A stretch of DNA of 64,000 nucleotides, taken from Candidatus Multivoradales bacterium (GTDB lineage Bacteria; Acidobacteriota; Thermoanaerobaculia; Multivoradales; JAHEKO01). The position numbers and the translations under genes are program-made. Within the stretch, counting starts at the first letter, position 1; every line of letters starts with the position of its first letter. This document shows positions 38,692 to 44,072 of the stretch, piece by piece. The notes under the pieces are model-generated. The model searched no databases and was not told the DNA's origin. It was given only the letters and a program-made list of their open reading frames with translations. The stretch lies in contig CBDFIJ010000004.1 of assembly GCA_965248055.1 (NCBI GenBank), positions 3,008,001 through 3,072,000 of the forward strand. Reading direction: 5' to 3'.

Positions 38692-40902
38692 ATGAGCAAA
38701 TTCAATTCGCTACAACTTGTTACCGTTGCGGCTGCGCTTGCGGTATCCGCCGGGTGCGCTACCCACCAGGCTGCGCAATCATCCGAAACTACTAACAACG
38801 CAGAAATGGCAACCATGGAAACTGAAACCGCCGAAGCAGAAGCTGAAATGTCGACCGATACCGGACCGTTGCTGACCGAGTGGAATACTCCGTTCGGTGT
38901 ACCTCCGTTTGATGAAATTAAGAACGAACACTACCTGCCAGCGTTTCGCCAAACCATGGAAGAACAGCAGCAAGAGATCACTGAGATCGTGGCCAAGCCG
39001 GAACCAGCGACCTTTGCCAACACCATTGAAGCACTGGAACGCACTGGCAAGGGGCTGACCAAGGTCGCCAACGTCTTCTACTCGCTCAACTCCGCACACA
39101 CCAACGACGTCATCAAAGAGGTGGCCTCGACGATTGCTCCGGAACTCTCCGCCCACGGCGACGACATTGCCTTCAACAAGCCGCTCTTTGAGCGAGTCAA
39201 GGCGGTCTACGACCAGCGTGAAGATCTTGGGCTGAGTGTTGAGCAGCTACGGCTGTTGGAAGAAACCCACAAGGGGTTCGTGCGCTCCGGCGTCGGCCTG
39301 GATGATGCCGCACAGGCAGAAATGCGCCGCATCAATGGTCAGTTGGCGGAGCTGTCGCAGGAGTTCCAGAATAATCTGCTGGCTGAGACCAACGATTTCT
39401 TCATTCATACGACCGACTCTGCTGCTCTCGGTGACCTGCCCACCAGCTTGGTTGCTCTGGCTGCCGATGAGGCAAAGAAACGCGAGTTCGAGGATGGCTG
39501 GGTGTTCACCATCCAGCGTCCCAGCATCAATCCGTTCCTGCAGTACTCACCCGACCGCGAACTGCGCAAGCAACTGTTCATGGCCTATGCGCTACGCGGC
39601 GACAACGGCAACGACAATGACAACAACCAGGTGCTGGCCACGATGGCCTCACTGCGGGCAGAAAAGGCTGGCATTCTCGGTTACGACAGCCATTCACACT
39701 TCGTGCTCTCGGATGCTATGGCGGAGACCCCGGATCGGGTCTATCAATTGCTCGATCAAGTCTGGGATCCGGCCATCAACGTGGCCAAGAAAGATCGCGG
39801 CGACCTGGAAGCGATGATGCATGCCGACGGCATCGAAGGCGAGTTGCAAGGATGGGACTGGCGCCACTACCAGGAGAAAGTGCGCAAGGCCCGCTACGAT
39901 CTCGACGAAGAGATTCTGCGGCCTTACTTTGAAGTCAACGCGGTGCGCGATGGTGTCTTCACCGTCGCCAACCGTCTCTATGGCCTGACCTTTCACCAGT
40001 TGGACGGCGTCCCGGTGTGGCAGCAGGACCAACAGGTGTTCGAGGTCAAAGAAGCCGACGGAAGTCACGTCGGCATCCTCTACATGGATTTCTTCACCCG
40101 TGACTCCAAACGCGGCGGTGCCTGGATGAACGATCTGCGCGCCCAGTCCAAGCTGGACGGCGACATCAAGCCGATCGTCACCAATAACTTCAACTTCCCA
40201 CCACCAACCGCCGACGGTCCATCACTGCTCTCGTTCACCAACGCCCAGACCTTGTTCCATGAGATGGGCCATGCGTTGCACGGTCTGCTCTCGGACGTCA
40301 CCTATGAATCTCTGTCCGGCACCAACGTGCCGCGCGACTTCGTCGAGTTTCCATCCCAGGTAATGGAGAACTGGATGGCGCATCCTGAGGTGCTCAAGCT
40401 CTACGCCAAGCACTACCAGACCGGTGAAGTGATCCCCGATGAACTGATCGCCAAGATTACCGCCGCTGACAAATTCGGCCAAGGTTTCGCCACCGTCGAA
40501 TACGTCGCCGCGTCCTATCTCGATATGGCTTGGCATACCCTCACCGAGCCTCAGGAATTAGTTCCGGATGAGATCGAAGAGGCGGAAATGGCCCGCATCG
40601 GCTTGATCGACCAGATCATCCCGCGCTACCGCAACACCTACTTTGCCCACATCTTCGCCGGCGGCTACTCCTCCGGTTACTACAGCTACCTGTGGTCCGA
40701 AGTCCTCGACGCTGACGCCTTTGAAGCCTTCAAAGAGACCGACGTATTCAACGCCGAGGTCGCTGCCCGCTACCGCCGCATGCTCTCCAAAGGCGGCTCC
40801 GAGCCGGGTATGGATCTCTACCGTGAATTCCGCGGTCGCGATCCGATTATTGATCCACTGCTAGAGCGGAGAGGGTTGGTGCAGGGCGAAGCTACAGAGT
40901 AG
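38692..40902 (+). CDS. dcp: M3-family peptidyl-dipeptidase (Dcp-like), lipoprotein signal
   Basis: Lipobox SAGC, KRGGAWM, FHEMGHALHG, DFVEFPSQ, GYYSYLWSEVLDAD. Confidence 0.92.
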   Translation: MSKFNSLQLVTVAAALAVSAGCATHQAAQSSETTNNAEMATMETETAEAEAEMSTDTGPLLTEWNTPFGVPPFDEIKNEHYLPAFRQTMEEQQQEITEIVAKPEPATFANTIEALERTGKGLTKVANVFYSLNSAHTNDVIKEVASTIAPELSAHGDDIAFNKPLFERVKAVYDQREDLGLSVEQLRLLEETHKGFVRSGVGLDDAAQAEMRRINGQLAELSQEFQNNLLAETNDFFIHTTDSAALGDLPTSLVALAADEAKKREFEDGWVFTIQRPSINPFLQYSPDRELRKQLFMAYALRGDNGNDNDNNQVLATMASLRAEKAGILGYDSHSHFVLSDAMAETPDRVYQLLDQVWDPAINVAKKDRGDLEAMMHADGIEGELQGWDWRHYQEKVRKARYDLDEEILRPYFEVNAVRDGVFTVANRLYGLTFHQLDGVPVWQQDQQVFEVKEADGSHVGILYMDFFTRDSKRGGAWMNDLRAQSKLDGDIKPIVTNNFNFPPPTADGPSLLSFTNAQTLFHEMGHALHGLLSDVTYESLSGTNVPRDFVEFPSQVMENWMAHPEVLKLYAKHYQTGEVIPDELIAKITAADKFGQGFATVEYVAASYLDMAWHTLTEPQELVPDEIEEAEMARIGLIDQIIPRYRNTYFAHIFAGGYSSGYYSYLWSEVLDADAFEAFKETDVFNAEVAARYRRMLSKGGSEPGMDLYREFRGRDPIIDPLLERRGLVQGEATE

Positions 40903-40926
40903 ACGCGTCTATTCCAGCGCGCTTAG

Positions 40927-40954
40927 AAAGGGAGGGGTTATCCCCTCCCTTTTT
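40927..40954 (+). terminator. Intrinsic terminator after dcp
   Basis: AAAGGGAGGGG-TTAT-CCCCTCCCTTTTT: perfect hairpin plus T-tract, 25 nt after the stop. Confidence 0.8.
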
Positions 40955-40987
40955 CGCGCCCACCACACTTTTTTGTACCGAATTCTT

Positions 40988-41187
40988 TTGCACTTGCTGC
41001 CCTGGAGGCCGGCGCATGCTTTTCGGACTCCAAAGAATGGCATGCGCCTCGGCTTCGCATCGCGCTGGATCATTAGACGGCCTCGCCACATCGTGCCATG
41101 CGCTTGCGAAAGCCTGTCCTGAGCGACCGCTGGGAGTCGAAGGAACGCCTCCCGGGCTGGCAGGTACGGAGTTCCCCCCTCCCAAGA
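40988..41187. repeat. Structured dispersed repeat, copy A (carries a 34-nt insertion at 41111-41144)
   Basis: Aligns by eye with 42528-42694; long outer stem, inner hairpin GGCGCATGC/GCATGCGCC, shared tail CAGGTACGG...CCCCCTCCCAAGA. Confidence 0.75.
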
Positions 41188-41216
41188 GGACAGAACACAC
41201 GGAGGGAGTCTGCTTC

Positions 41217-41330
41217 GGCGGGGACAGTTCAAACACCTCGTCATCCCAACGCCAGCGAGCCTGCCCCGGCGGGGCGTGGGTGGGAGCCGGGGTCATCCCG
41301 GCGGTGGAAGGGCGAGGGGCCAGGATCTCG
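41217..41330. repeat. REP-like palindromic modules
   Basis: 41217-41247 is close to the reverse complement of GGGATGACGAGGTGTTTGAGCTCCCCGCC in the 294-bp array. 41283-41307 GGAGCCGGGGTCATCCCGGCGGTGG is identical to 44865-44889. Confidence 0.75.
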
Positions 41331-41482
41331 TTTGCTGTTGTCACCCTCGCGGCGATTCGCCAGCAAGCTAGTCGTAAACTAAATATTCCGCTGTCTTAGT
41401 CTTGCGGTGGTACCCGACTTGCACCAAGTAACCCCATGCACAATGGCTGGCCCTAGGGTCAGTTACCAAAAAGGGGGCTGTA

Positions 41483-42283
41483 ATGAAGAAAACGCGTACG
41501 TTGATTGCCACTGGATTACTAGGGATTTGTTTCGCGTTACCGTTGGCGGCACAGCAGGCTAGTGAGGAAAGCAAGGTCGAGGAAAACTTGGTCACCCGCC
41601 AGTTTCGGCTGGAGTATATCGGTGCCGAAATGGCGGCGAACGTGCTTCGTGGCATCTTTGCGATGAGAAACATGGCCCCGATTGGTGAGAGCACCGTCGT
41701 CGTATCCGATCAGCTTGTGCGCATTGAACGGGCGGCTGAGGTTCTCGCTATGTTAGACCGTTCTCCGGGTGCATACGCAGCCGAGGTATTGCTTTACCAA
41801 GTTCCCTGGAATCTTGGCGCGGCAGAATTAACTCTTTCAGAGTACCTAGCTGAGCTAGGAAATGGTGGTGTATTGAAAGATAGGCAGACGTTGACCGCGT
41901 TCGGTGGCGAGAATATGTTCTGGGATTCGGGTCACGGCGGTTCGGCGCCTTGTTCTCAAGTCAAGGTCGAGCTCGCGGTTCAATCTTCCGATCCGGAACA
42001 GCTTTCGTTGGGCTACTCGATCCGGGGTGCGAGTGGCTCCAAATTACAGGGATCCACACCTATCGTTTCTGAACAGCAATTGGTTCTCAATGCGGGAGCT
42101 CTTACAGCTTTCTCCGATCAGGCGCGCAAGCTGCAAACAGATGAGGGTTCGCGCAAATCAGGGGATACGGTCGCGAAGAAGGAGAGCCAGGAAGCGCACT
42201 GTTTGGTCGCCGTGACCCTCAGCGTGCTCCAGGATCCCGATCCTGTCGACGAATCCGCTATTGAGCTCAACTGGTCGCGTTGA
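41483..42283 (+). CDS. Secreted hypothetical protein with a secretin-N (NolW)-like domain
   Basis: Signal peptide; TRQFRLEYIGAEMAANVL...STVVVSD..RIERAAEVLAMLDRSP resembles the secretin N repeat. Confidence 0.6.
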   Translation: MKKTRTLIATGLLGICFALPLAAQQASEESKVEENLVTRQFRLEYIGAEMAANVLRGIFAMRNMAPIGESTVVVSDQLVRIERAAEVLAMLDRSPGAYAAEVLLYQVPWNLGAAELTLSEYLAELGNGGVLKDRQTLTAFGGENMFWDSGHGGSAPCSQVKVELAVQSSDPEQLSLGYSIRGASGSKLQGSTPIVSEQQLVLNAGALTAFSDQARKLQTDEGSRKSGDTVAKKESQEAHCLVAVTLSVLQDPDPVDESAIELNWSR

Positions 42284-42417
42284 AGGCAGGGCGGTTCTCC
42301 AGCCGTTCGACGATGTTGCGAGAAACACTGCATCGTTGACGAAGGCGCGTTAGGTCAATGTTTCGACAGGTGCGAACGATTTTTTCGGTGTTAGACGTGC
42401 AACAAACTTGTGATCGT

Positions 42418-42524
42418 GCGCCGGCAGCACAGTGGGATATTGCACCAGCGAGCCTGCCCTGAGCGAGTTCGGCGAGCCGAAGGGGATCTGGGGGTCGAGG
42501 GTTCGAATCCTTCCCGGCGCGCCA
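42418..42524 (+). pseudogene. tRNA-Arg-like gene with the anticodon loop replaced by a REP-like insertion
   Basis: Acceptor GCGCCGG/CCGGCGC, D arm GCAC-AGTGGGATA-TTGC, anticodon stem CCAG/CTGG, variable GGGTC, T arm GAGGG-TTCGAAT-CCTTC, end GCCA. U8 is C and about 37 nt of repeat sits in the anticodon loop. Arg identity is inferred from body similarity only. Confidence 0.75.
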
Positions 42525-42527
42525 TTC

Positions 42528-42694
42528 TTGTACCTGCTGCGCTGGGAGCTGGCGAGCACTTCTCAGAATCCGAAAGTGGGTGCTCGCCTCGGCTTTGCTT
42601 CGCGCCGAATCGATGAAGGCCTATTGACGCCGGTGCTACGCACTTGCAAAGACGCCCCAGCGGCATCAGGTACGGGGGTTTCCCCCTCCCAAGA
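42528..42694. repeat. Structured dispersed repeat, copy B
   Basis: Starts 3 nt after the tRNA-like CCA; outer stem GTACCTG...CAGGTAC, inner hairpin GGCGAGCAC/GTGCTCGCC; homologous to 40988-41187. Confidence 0.75.
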
Positions 42695-42770
42695 TCAAAG
42701 AAGGAACTCGTCGTACGTCCCGTCCTGCGTGAGATGTGGGGTATAAACTATCGACGGAGGTTTGCTAAGA

Positions 42771-43895
42771 ATGACTACACGACTGTCTGCCTTCCCGGTC
42801 TGGATACTGGTGGTATCGCTAGTCGTCAGCGCGCTCCACGCGGAACCTCCCACGGCCCTAGAGAAGATCCTCGACCAAAACCCGCGCACCGATGAGCTCT
42901 ACCGACTCGTCCGCTTGTCGGACCGGGTGGTGTTTGCCAAGTTGGCCTCGAGCGAAGCACGGATTTCGCTATTGGGCGAAGTCGGGCCCGCGCCCGGGGT
43001 TGGTCTTTGGGCCGGCCCCACTTTGAGCATGACCAACACCGCTCTGGCGGCCGAATTGGATACCACTACGCTGACGGAATCCGGGCAGCAACTGCGAGAG
43101 GATCTGATCGATCTCGGGTTCATTCCCGCCGAAGACAAGCTTCAAGTTCTGATCACACTGGTCGATGGCGCGAGGGTGGACCAGATGTTCGATTTTTCAG
43201 ATTGGGAACGATTGGGTGAAAGACAGCGCGAAGAAGACCTCATAACTCAAGGCCACAGTGGGGATCAGGTACTCGAGCGGCGACTCGGGACGCGCTTTGG
43301 CGAGGCCGTGGCCCGGCAAGCCGCGTATGACGCAGACTGGAAATTTGACGACCAGGCAGATGTGATGGCCGGGGAGAGAGCACGGGAAGCCGAACGACAG
43401 CAGTTGATCGCTGGGCGGCGGGCGCGCTTTGTTACCGAAGCAATTCGCGCCCTGTATTGGGTCGATCCAACCTACGAAACCACAATCATTGATTGGCTTG
43501 AGAGCCTTCCACAAGAAGACACCAATCGCCTTGCCCGTCTGCTACAACTTGCGGGTTTCGATCAGATGAGCCCCGAGATCTTGGTGCGCGAGAGCGCGCC
43601 CAACCTGCATCAGCCTCTGGTCCTAAGTGCCCGCCTGTACCAACGCCTGGAGAGCGTTACGGTCGGCGGAGCGAGCAAACGACAACTTGATCCGGAGCGC
43701 TTCGCCAATGCCGAAGTTCTGGCGCAGGCGGAGAGCTTCTACCAGCAGTTCTTTGTTGCCGACCGCAAGGGTAGGTTCGAGTTTGAGCTTGCAGAGGGAG
43801 TTGCGACGTTTGTCGAGACGCAATCAGCTTTGGTCCGTGAGTTGACCGCATCACATCTTGAGGGATTGTTAGGTTCCGGCTGGTTAGAAGACTGA
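42771..43895 (+). CDS. Hypothetical secreted protein
   Basis: RBS GGAGG, signal peptide ending ALHA-E, 374-aa ORF with no motif I recognise. Confidence 0.7.
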   Translation: MTTRLSAFPVWILVVSLVVSALHAEPPTALEKILDQNPRTDELYRLVRLSDRVVFAKLASSEARISLLGEVGPAPGVGLWAGPTLSMTNTALAAELDTTTLTESGQQLREDLIDLGFIPAEDKLQVLITLVDGARVDQMFDFSDWERLGERQREEDLITQGHSGDQVLERRLGTRFGEAVARQAAYDADWKFDDQADVMAGERAREAERQQLIAGRRARFVTEAIRALYWVDPTYETTIIDWLESLPQEDTNRLARLLQLAGFDQMSPEILVRESAPNLHQPLVLSARLYQRLESVTVGGASKRQLDPERFANAEVLAQAESFYQQFFVADRKGRFEFELAEGVATFVETQSALVRELTASHLEGLLGSGWLED

Positions 43896-43970
43896 TTTGT
43901 TTTTGCACCCGCCGTCCTGAAGACGGTGAGCGCTTCTCGGACTCCGCAGTACGGCGCTCACCTCGCCGGA

Positions 43971-44072
43971 GGGGACACAATACTTTGTTTGTGTCCCCAT
44001 CTCCGCCGAGCGGCGATCTGCGCGCTGAGTCATCCTGAGCGACCGAGCTTTGCGAGGGAGTCGAAGGATCTC
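43971..44072. repeat. Hairpin plus REP-like half element
   Basis: GGGGACACAA..TTGTGTCCCC hairpin (43971-43998). GTCATCCTGAGCG...GGAGTCGAAGGATCTC (44029-44072) matches 44918-44961. Confidence 0.75.

Follow-up and report, generated by a model that had tools for sequence, protein, structure and literature searches.

Within a window of 64,000 nucleotides from a Candidatus Multivoradales bacterium (positions 3008001-3072000 of contig C4 in a 3.4-Mb genome, referred to here as G000) two related structured elements, A and B, had been predicted from the DNA letters, and we confirm this observation. Each of A (40984-41195) and B (42524-42701), both on the + strand, is an old copy of a dispersed repeat, non-coding and about 175 nt in length, in which a long stem encloses two hairpins and thereby forms a three-way junction. 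As far as searched the repeat is confined to one bacterial order. With a probability of roughly 0.5 we regard it as an intergenic repeat that is structure-dependent and non-autonomous, of the kind of MITEs (miniature transposable elements with inverted repeats) or of repetitive extragenic palindromes (REPs) and bacterial interspersed mosaic elements (BIMEs).

The consensus of the repeat comprises a closing stem P1 of 18 bp (18 to about 30 bp across copies), a hairpin P2 of 10 bp with an 18-nt loop, an irregular hairpin P3, a small 3' hairpin P4 and a C-rich tail, where P2 and P3 lie inside P1. The helix maps of A and B were taken from an alignment of copies. In A the 5' strand of P1 (40990-41008) is followed by P2 (41011-41048), P3 (41054-41110), the 3' strand of P1 (41148-41167), P4 (41168-41179) and the tail (41180-41195). 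Between P3 and the 3' strand of P1 a REP-type hairpin of 33 nt is inserted (41111-41143, + strand), which lies outside the family consensus, is present in A only among the six full copies of the genome and is 79% identical to a stretch at 42451-42483. The corresponding parts of B are the 5' strand of P1 at 42530-42548, P2 at 42551-42588, P3 at 42594-42650, a junction GACG at 42651-42654, the 3' strand of P1 at 42655-42673, P4 at 42674-42685 and the tail at 42686-42701. Folded with RNA parameters, both elements adopt the long closing stem around two hairpins and are more stable than dinucleotide shuffles (z = -3.26 for A and z = -3.36 for B).

All strings and positions on which the original prediction was built are present in the sequence. 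These are the inner stem GGCGCATGC/GCATGCGCC of A (41011-41019 and 41040-41048), its counterpart GGCGAGCAC/GTGCTCGCC in B (42551-42559 and 42580-42588), the closing of both outer stems at CAGGTAC and the common tail CCCCCTCCCAAGA. The two elements are separated by about 1.3 kb and were said to be collinear in direct orientation; apart from the 33-nt insertion in A they indeed align in this way, with a mean column identity of 65% over a wider stretch.

Further copies, as anticipated in the same prediction, were searched for in G000 with a profile of four copies, BLAST and nhmmer. This led to three partial copies and to six full ones (profile E-values from 2e-47 to 5e-17), of which C is on the - strand and the other five (A, B, D, E and F) are on the + strand. 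From the full copies a covariance model, R1, was constructed; it recovers them at E-values from 2e-49 to 2e-39, with 167.5 bits (E = 2.5e-46) for A and 159 bits (E = 7e-44) for B. The four full copies besides A and B are located 46 to 430 kb away from these two. The partial copies p1, p2 (abutting C) and p3 consist only of the 5' strand of P1 and of P2. Copy p1 is found in the window (43899-43973, + strand; nhmmer E = 2.4e-8), where it begins 3-4 nt past the stop codon of a gene for 377 aa and runs into a small REP-type hairpin; R1 assigns it 35.9 bits over 43899-44047 (E = 2e-7).

When 61 relatives were searched with R1, matches occurred in 30 of them, including 23 of the 36 genomes of the same family, with up to at least 44 matches per genome. 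We then aligned 86 copies from G000, its sister species G001, the genomes G019 and G025 and 15 other genomes. The core, counted from inner P1 to inner P1, measures 113-120 nt in 79 of these 86 copies, and a MAFFT alignment of the 79 served to build a core model, R2. This model matches 53 of 151 genomes of the order, with up to at least 24 copies per genome. The distribution among families is patchy: 19 of 22 genomes have a match in family f1 (which includes the unpublished genome G002), 5 of 8 in f3, 3 of 8 in f4, 1 of 21 in f7, 8 of 21 in f8, 2 of 21 in f9 and 7 of 10 each in f10 and f11, while no match occurs in f2 (0 of 6), f6 (0 of 21), f5 (0 of 1) and f12 (0 of 1). The one matching genome of f7, G285, possesses no fewer than 24 high-scoring copies, against none in the remaining 20 genomes of this family. 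When 151 genomes were sampled evenly across the phylum, four of them matched, all within the order. The 205 occurrences of a 17-nt arm pattern in G025, compared to 19 in the control, suggest that this genome carries approximately 100 copies.

The fold is accompanied by paired changes throughout the family. In the alignment fitted to the model 88.6% of the cells pair, compared to 65.9% in shuffles and at most 50.3% with slid partners, and changes on both sides occur in 43 of 45 pairs. As a model-fitted alignment favours its own structure, the count was repeated on the MAFFT alignment; here 93.4% of the cells pair (shuffles 74.2%, slid partners at most 55.6%) and double changes are seen in 21 of 23 pairs. 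This is in agreement with the selection on structure that had been proposed from A and B. What is conserved in sequence is mainly G-C pairs (in P3 and at the P2 base), some loop positions and, in 61 of the 86 copies, a U-G pair at the top of P2. In G285 (loci L117-L134) and in G019 the outer 10 bp or so of P1 are specific for the individual copy yet perfectly complementary, the copies being otherwise similar. The 3' tail exists in two conserved alternatives, each found across families of the order, namely the C-rich one of the window and a GGCACC-type; reading the TGGCACC tail as a sigma-54-like site was rejected, as the spacing does not fit.

A comparison with the sister species reveals retention as well as gain or loss of copies. 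Out of 13 loci in G001 four are syntenic with the copies B, C, D and F, two correspond to clearly empty sites in G000 and seven are ambiguous; copy A is absent from the syntenic G001 site behind the gene dcp. Divergence at the empty G000 sites is too great for exact insertion joints to be read; the dcp genes of both species are only about 78% identical. The members of the four syntenic pairs are 56-72% identical and all still fold, with 5, 6, 10 and 4 compensatory pair changes (copy B: 72% identity and five changes); the intergenic DNA around them does not align. Neutral decay is estimated to leave about one compensatory change per copy pair. Since the observed numbers exceed this estimate, either the fold is kept at the individual loci or the copies are renewed by conversion or re-insertion.

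Within a genome the copies reach an identity of at most 0.94; the medians are 0.59 (G000), 0.55 (G001), 0.73 (G019) and 0.79 (G025), so the expansion is older in G000 and younger elsewhere. In the genus g16 the repeated unit measures 172 nt and has sharp ends. A search for empty and filled sites in sister genomes of this genus returned sites at which the copy is kept or at which the contig is broken at the repeat. Among 20 dcp neighbourhoods of named genomes from several phyla, which probably do not include the closest relatives, none contains the element. The 20-nt hairpin behind dcp, used as a query for an empty A site in metagenome contigs, retrieved 45 loci of which none is related beyond the hairpin. 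On viral contigs a degenerate core pattern occurs in at least 118 stretches; R2 confirmed none of the first 80 loci, a result that says little.

The scarcity of G-U pairs relative to the tRNAs of the same genome offers a simple test between pairing at the level of DNA, or on both strands, and an ordinary RNA constraint. In a structured functional RNA G-U pairs are expected to occur far more often than other non-standard pairs, and the repeat departs from this expectation. Within the 1806 cells of the MAFFT alignment 17 G-U pairs face 119 other non-standard pairs, and in the larger alignment 176 G-U pairs, 61 of them from the one conserved U-G pair, compare to 108 A-C and 275 other combinations. 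The acceptor and anticodon stems of 48 tRNAs of the genome, taken as control, contain 559 Watson-Crick, 15 G-U, one A-C and one other pair (576 in total), where one must keep in mind that the acceptor window was picked with G-U counted as a pair, which slightly favours G-U in the control. A further hint comes from about 100 copies in the genus g16 with two systematic arm differences: these read as C-A on the modelled strand and as U-G on the other, and the pairing constraint is therefore strand-symmetric. Pairing at the DNA level, or a use of both strands, fits better than an ordinary RNA made from one strand.

The few G-U pairs, the patchy distribution and the gain and loss between species make us lean towards a mobile element or one that acts at the DNA level. 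The original prediction had offered a non-coding RNA motif or a MITE-like or REPIN-like element (REPINs are doublets of two like REP copies in inverted orientation) as alternatives. This choice is not settled by our results, which favour the mobile, DNA-level side and do not support its version with REPINs and REP-associated tyrosine transposases (RAYTs). We propose that the repeat could multiply by inserting copies into gene-distal intergenic DNA, mostly behind the ends of genes. An enzyme encoded elsewhere would presumably recognise the folded element in trans, as single-stranded DNA rather than as RNA, and the fold instead of the stem sequence would be the feature that is kept. The G000 copies, which are old and few, may since have been given a local role, as the sister species still has at least four of them at matching sites.

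The positions of the copies relative to genes can be reconciled with such a behaviour. Based on rough calls of open reading frames (ORFs), 24 copies are placed in convergent and 11 in divergent gaps, and within co-directional gaps 22 copies run along the genes and 15 against them. From these counts the element appears to avoid promoter regions without following a strand rule. Copy F and its counterpart in G001 overlap the upstream stop codon by 4 nt. The upstream flanks are not conserved among copies, and the strands of 22 listed copies in G019 are mixed along the contig, a replication-strand bias having been judged by eye only. Adjacent copies are arranged tail-to-tail in six cases, head-to-head in one and in tandem in one, and the members of such doublets are 50-67% alike. 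Copies also combine with other modules: at locus L135 (contig C39 of G016) both ends of P1 are kept as in the syntenic locus L065 of G025, and in place of the whole P2-P3 core there is a repeat module unrelated to it, about 190 nt long, which in addition adjoins another copy in G025.

Several repeat neighbours in G025 were noticed in passing. At the loci L062, L067, L069, L072-L074, L076 and L081 octamer repeats of the GGGGCNTA type are found approximately 60-200 nt 3' of the repeat, followed by a very conserved module of about 110 nt with a possible long-range stem and without a match in Rfam. A third module occurs around copies in either orientation.

A number of observations weigh against the proposal of a mobile repeat. 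The copies in G000 are only 59% alike at the median and therefore give no sign of recent movement in this genome. The compensatory changes at syntenic sites together with the fixed length of the core look like selection at each locus and unlike plain selfish DNA, and an outer P1 that is paired but variable in sequence would be odd for terminal repeats bound by a transposase. The flanks of the 86 copies contain no evident direct repeat that would indicate a target-site duplication; the 3' flank is itself conserved, which blurs the true end of the element. A full-length parent element was found neither among the 130 ORFs nearest to 81 copies outside G000 nor among the first 100 of the 205 arm matches in G025. 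One candidate parent, locus L308 of G025 (C3:765900-768600), where a single arm pair brackets a transposase gene, was rejected: an IS481-family element has entered the P2 loop of a repeat copy there, with a 343-aa transposase (rve and a helix-turn-helix domain) and with terminal repeats that are about 44 nt long and differ from those of the copy.

Neither did an enzyme emerge from the candidates considered, namely TnpB, Y1/RAYT, tyrosine recombinases and GIY-YIG proteins. TnpB is absent from all five of five genomes checked, and the seven matches to tyrosine recombinases in G000 all lie more than about 40 kb from any copy. Genes for RAYT or other HUH enzymes and for GIY-YIG proteins had been suggested as neighbours of the copies; the 13 Y1 matches in G000 include none near a copy, and small GIY-YIG genes go with small tagged hairpins instead (see below). 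Over the order no correlation between Y1 and the repeat is seen, Y1 being found in 118 and the repeat in 53 of the 151 genomes; nine genomes with 8 to at least 24 copies of the repeat have no Y1 match, and in one family 19 of 21 genomes contain Y1 but none of the 21 the repeat. The 130 flanking ORFs, compared with Pfam, match 198 families, of which the commonest (TPR) occurs in five ORFs; neither transposases nor reverse transcriptases nor integrases are enriched, and no RVT (reverse transcriptase) family is among the recurrent ones.

Instead of moving, the copies could act in place as functional structured RNAs at mRNA 3' ends or in intergenic transcripts, for example as a block for exonucleases, a terminator or an RNase target, with both strands being used in convergent gaps. 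We think of this as a serious competing explanation, with a smaller chance than that of the mobile repeat. The heavy covariation in both alignments (43 of 45 and 21 of 23 pairs), the fixed length of the core, the conserved nucleotides in loops and junction including the U-G pair on top of P2 and the syntenic retention with compensatory changes all agree with it. Moreover some copies must be transcribed together with the upstream gene, as F and its G001 counterpart overlap the stop codon and p1 follows one closely, convergent gaps are over-represented (24 versus 11 divergent), and a use of both strands would account for the intolerance towards G-U. However, G-U is not favoured in the repeat (17 versus 119 other non-standard pairs, compared to 15 versus 2 in the tRNA control), two systematic C-A mismatches on the modelled strand persist in about 100 copies of one genus, and the orientation in co-directional gaps (22 versus 15) is close to random. 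A simple scan showed neither a sigma-70-like promoter nor a terminator beside A or B, and the occurrence within the order is patchy. A riboswitch or another cis-regulatory leader was rejected in this context, since the copies have no constant co-directional position (34 are followed by a gene in the same direction and 43 by one in the opposite direction) and the neighbouring genes are heterogeneous.

A more speculative view, to which we give rather little weight, regards the three-way junction as the recognition module of an undescribed system. This might be an enzyme that reads shape and mobilises branched single-stranded DNA, or a multi-copy scaffold or guide RNA with a distant partner. If so, the copy-specific and paired outer stem would represent information and not filler. 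Should an enzyme read the shape, this would amount to a new recognition principle and possibly a tool; should the element be an RNA, a phylum that has received little study would have yielded an abundant new class.

The narrower version, a trans-acting scaffold or guide RNA of an unrecognised protein system whose specificity resides in the variable outer P1 or in the conserved tail, we hold to be unlikely. There is a precedent in the multi-copy HEARO motif, which is the guide RNA of IscB. The difference in the outer 10 bp or so of P1 between similar copies of G285 and G019, the two tail types that are conserved across families and the strongly conserved structure would be compatible with such a function. 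Against this stand the lack of any recurring protein family among the 130 flanking ORFs, the missing promoter and the few G-U pairs, and the variable segment of P1 is base-paired and thus not free to pair with a target.

Still less probable are recombination sites of a cassette system comparable to the attC sites of integrons, with one folded site per gene. In the window a + strand gene precedes each of A, B and p1, which are oriented alike, G000 and G001 differ in what lies between dcp and a tRNA-like piece in front of B, and a variable sequence with a conserved fold would be expected of such sites as well. Elsewhere, however, the copies are mostly single, occur in both orientations and lie between housekeeping genes; the tyrosine recombinase matches are remote from the copies, as given above, and the ends share no motif resembling a core site. 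The internal hairpins of the repeat are conserved in sequence and length, whereas attC sites have a variable middle. That the likeness of A and B arose by chance or by a local segmental duplication, as their short distance and direct orientation might imply, can practically be dismissed in view of the four full copies 46-430 kb away and the hundreds in other genera.

The neighbourhood of A and B in the window contains several further features, all on the + strand. Upstream of A a dcp-like gene of the M3 peptidases (38692-40902; Pfam Peptidase_M3, E = 4e-127) is followed by a G+C-rich hairpin and a run of T (40926-40958), a terminator-like arrangement read from the sequence. A starts about 30 nt past it; that A follows this site had been noted before. 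This hairpin gives only weak alignments to terminator-type models in Rfam and is not listed by a simple terminator scan. Between A and B a gene for a secreted protein of 266 aa is located (41483-42283), whose weak match to Secretin_N (Pfam E = 0.0019) misses the cut-off, and between B and p1 the list of ORFs contains the gene for 377 aa (42762-43895), whose sole Pfam match misses the cut-off as well.

B is directly abutted by a remnant that resembles a tRNA (42418-42525; read from the sequence), with an intact acceptor stem, T arm and encoded CCA, and with a REP-type hairpin of 30-39 nt (42451-42483) in place of the anticodon loop. The claim that B begins directly after GCGCCA thus stands, and the claim that this piece is a tRNA does not: ARAGORN predicts neither a tRNA nor a tmRNA over the whole window, and we therefore call the piece tRNA-like only. 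Other tRNAs of the genome serve all 20 amino acids. The tRNA-like piece and copy B are both kept in the sister species at about 80% identity. At the site of the 266-aa gene the DNA of the sister species (G001:C1:1021779-1022754) shows no match to window positions 41483-42283; an unrelated stretch of about 1 kb is found there, apparently coding on the other strand, so that the two species differ in this small region. Apart from the main contig the G000 assembly contains three short contigs, C1-C3 (14.8, 16.7 and 28.4 kb), with a G+C content of 39-43% compared to 57% and without tRNA; they may represent a plasmid, a phage or a contamination.

Directly 3' of A, REP-type hairpin units with a GTCATCC tag (41240-41331) belong to a separate repeat family that is often found beside copies of the three-way-junction repeat; BLAST finds many copies of them in the genome, arranged in arrays, and a strictly defined tagged hairpin lies at 41292-41326. 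Small hairpins with the GTCATCC tag occur 217 times in the genome compared to 24 times in a reversed-sequence control. Approximately 24 kb past the end of the window a GIY-YIG gene of 106 codons (SsnA-like; C4:3096163-3096381) is surrounded by 12 GTCATYC-tagged ones, and according to PMC11893778 this arrangement, a gene for the single-strand nuclease SsnA with tagged hairpins around it, has been described. The small GIY-YIG gene belongs with the tagged-hairpin family. Tagged hairpins are present next to 9 of 18 repeat copies in G285; by the strict definition one is found within 150 nt of 1 of 8 copies in G000.

The repeat is well suited to the question of what preserves a fold in DNA that is selfish or domesticated. 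It also has a practical side, as the copies break short-read assemblies in the order and a model of the repeat would aid annotation.

The repeat was not recognised as a known family in the original prediction, which is borne out by Rfam 15: the whole window gives no match at the gathering score, the region gives four chance-level matches at E-values up to 10 (a human lncRNA model, an archaeal snoRNA model and two terminator-type hairpins), and eight loci of other genera give none at E-values up to 0.1. With the motifs in Rfam it nevertheless shares that it is structured, covarying, non-coding and derived from comparative analysis. The Acido-1 and Acido-Lenti-1 motifs, said to have been described by Weinberg et al. 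in 2010, are among the families to which this comparison applies. A description of the repeat family was not found in the published literature, where the supplementary catalogues of PMC11602168 and PMC11893778, outside this search, may list relatives.

Retron msr-msd RNAs, HEARO or omega RNAs and the bridge RNAs of IS110 are multi-copy and possess terminal pairing and a two-hairpin domain. The repeat resembles them with its 120-180 nt, the terminal pairing that closes two hairpins and the multiple copies, but differs in that no gene for a reverse transcriptase or for a TnpB, IscB or IS110-type protein adjoins any of the 81 copies. Correia and ERIC elements are examples of MITEs. According to the definition in PMC11602168, MITEs are small, non-coding and present in many copies, and have terminal inverted repeats of at least 10-15 bp, a target duplication of 2-10 bp and a parent insertion sequence. 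With P1 of 18 to about 30 bp, the 172-nt unit of genus g16, the absence of coding and its copy number the repeat corresponds to the first of these properties, and its presence likewise varies between species in a patchy manner. It differs in that its outer stem varies in sequence but pairs, and our searches revealed neither an evident target duplication nor a parent insertion sequence with the same ends; in addition a three-way junction that covaries and keeps its length is conserved in its interior.

The CGTC-tagged REPs, NTS and Ssn-related motifs associated with SsnA, as presented in PMC11893778, are close to the hairpins that lie beside or inside the repeat copies (41111-41143, 41240-41331 and 42451-42483). 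They are simple hairpins of about 30 nt and constitute a separate family, and no link between SsnA and the three-way-junction repeat is seen. In comparison with the REP, BIME and REPIN-RAYT systems (Nunvar et al. 2010, PMC2817692), the repeat is likewise non-coding, high in copy number, intergenic, hairpin-forming and situated near gene ends, and its adjacent copies alternate in orientation and mix with other modules into mosaics. No RAYT adjoins the repeat and Y1 does not track it over the 151 genomes; its doublets, unlike those of REPINs, do not consist of like copies. REPs are palindromes of 20-40 nt, whereas in the repeat reported here two conserved internal hairpins form part of a branched fold that spans 115-180 nt. 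Among the common small hairpin repeats of bacteria, one that is branched, with a strongly covarying junction of fixed length, distributed throughout an order and absent from Rfam, is unusual.

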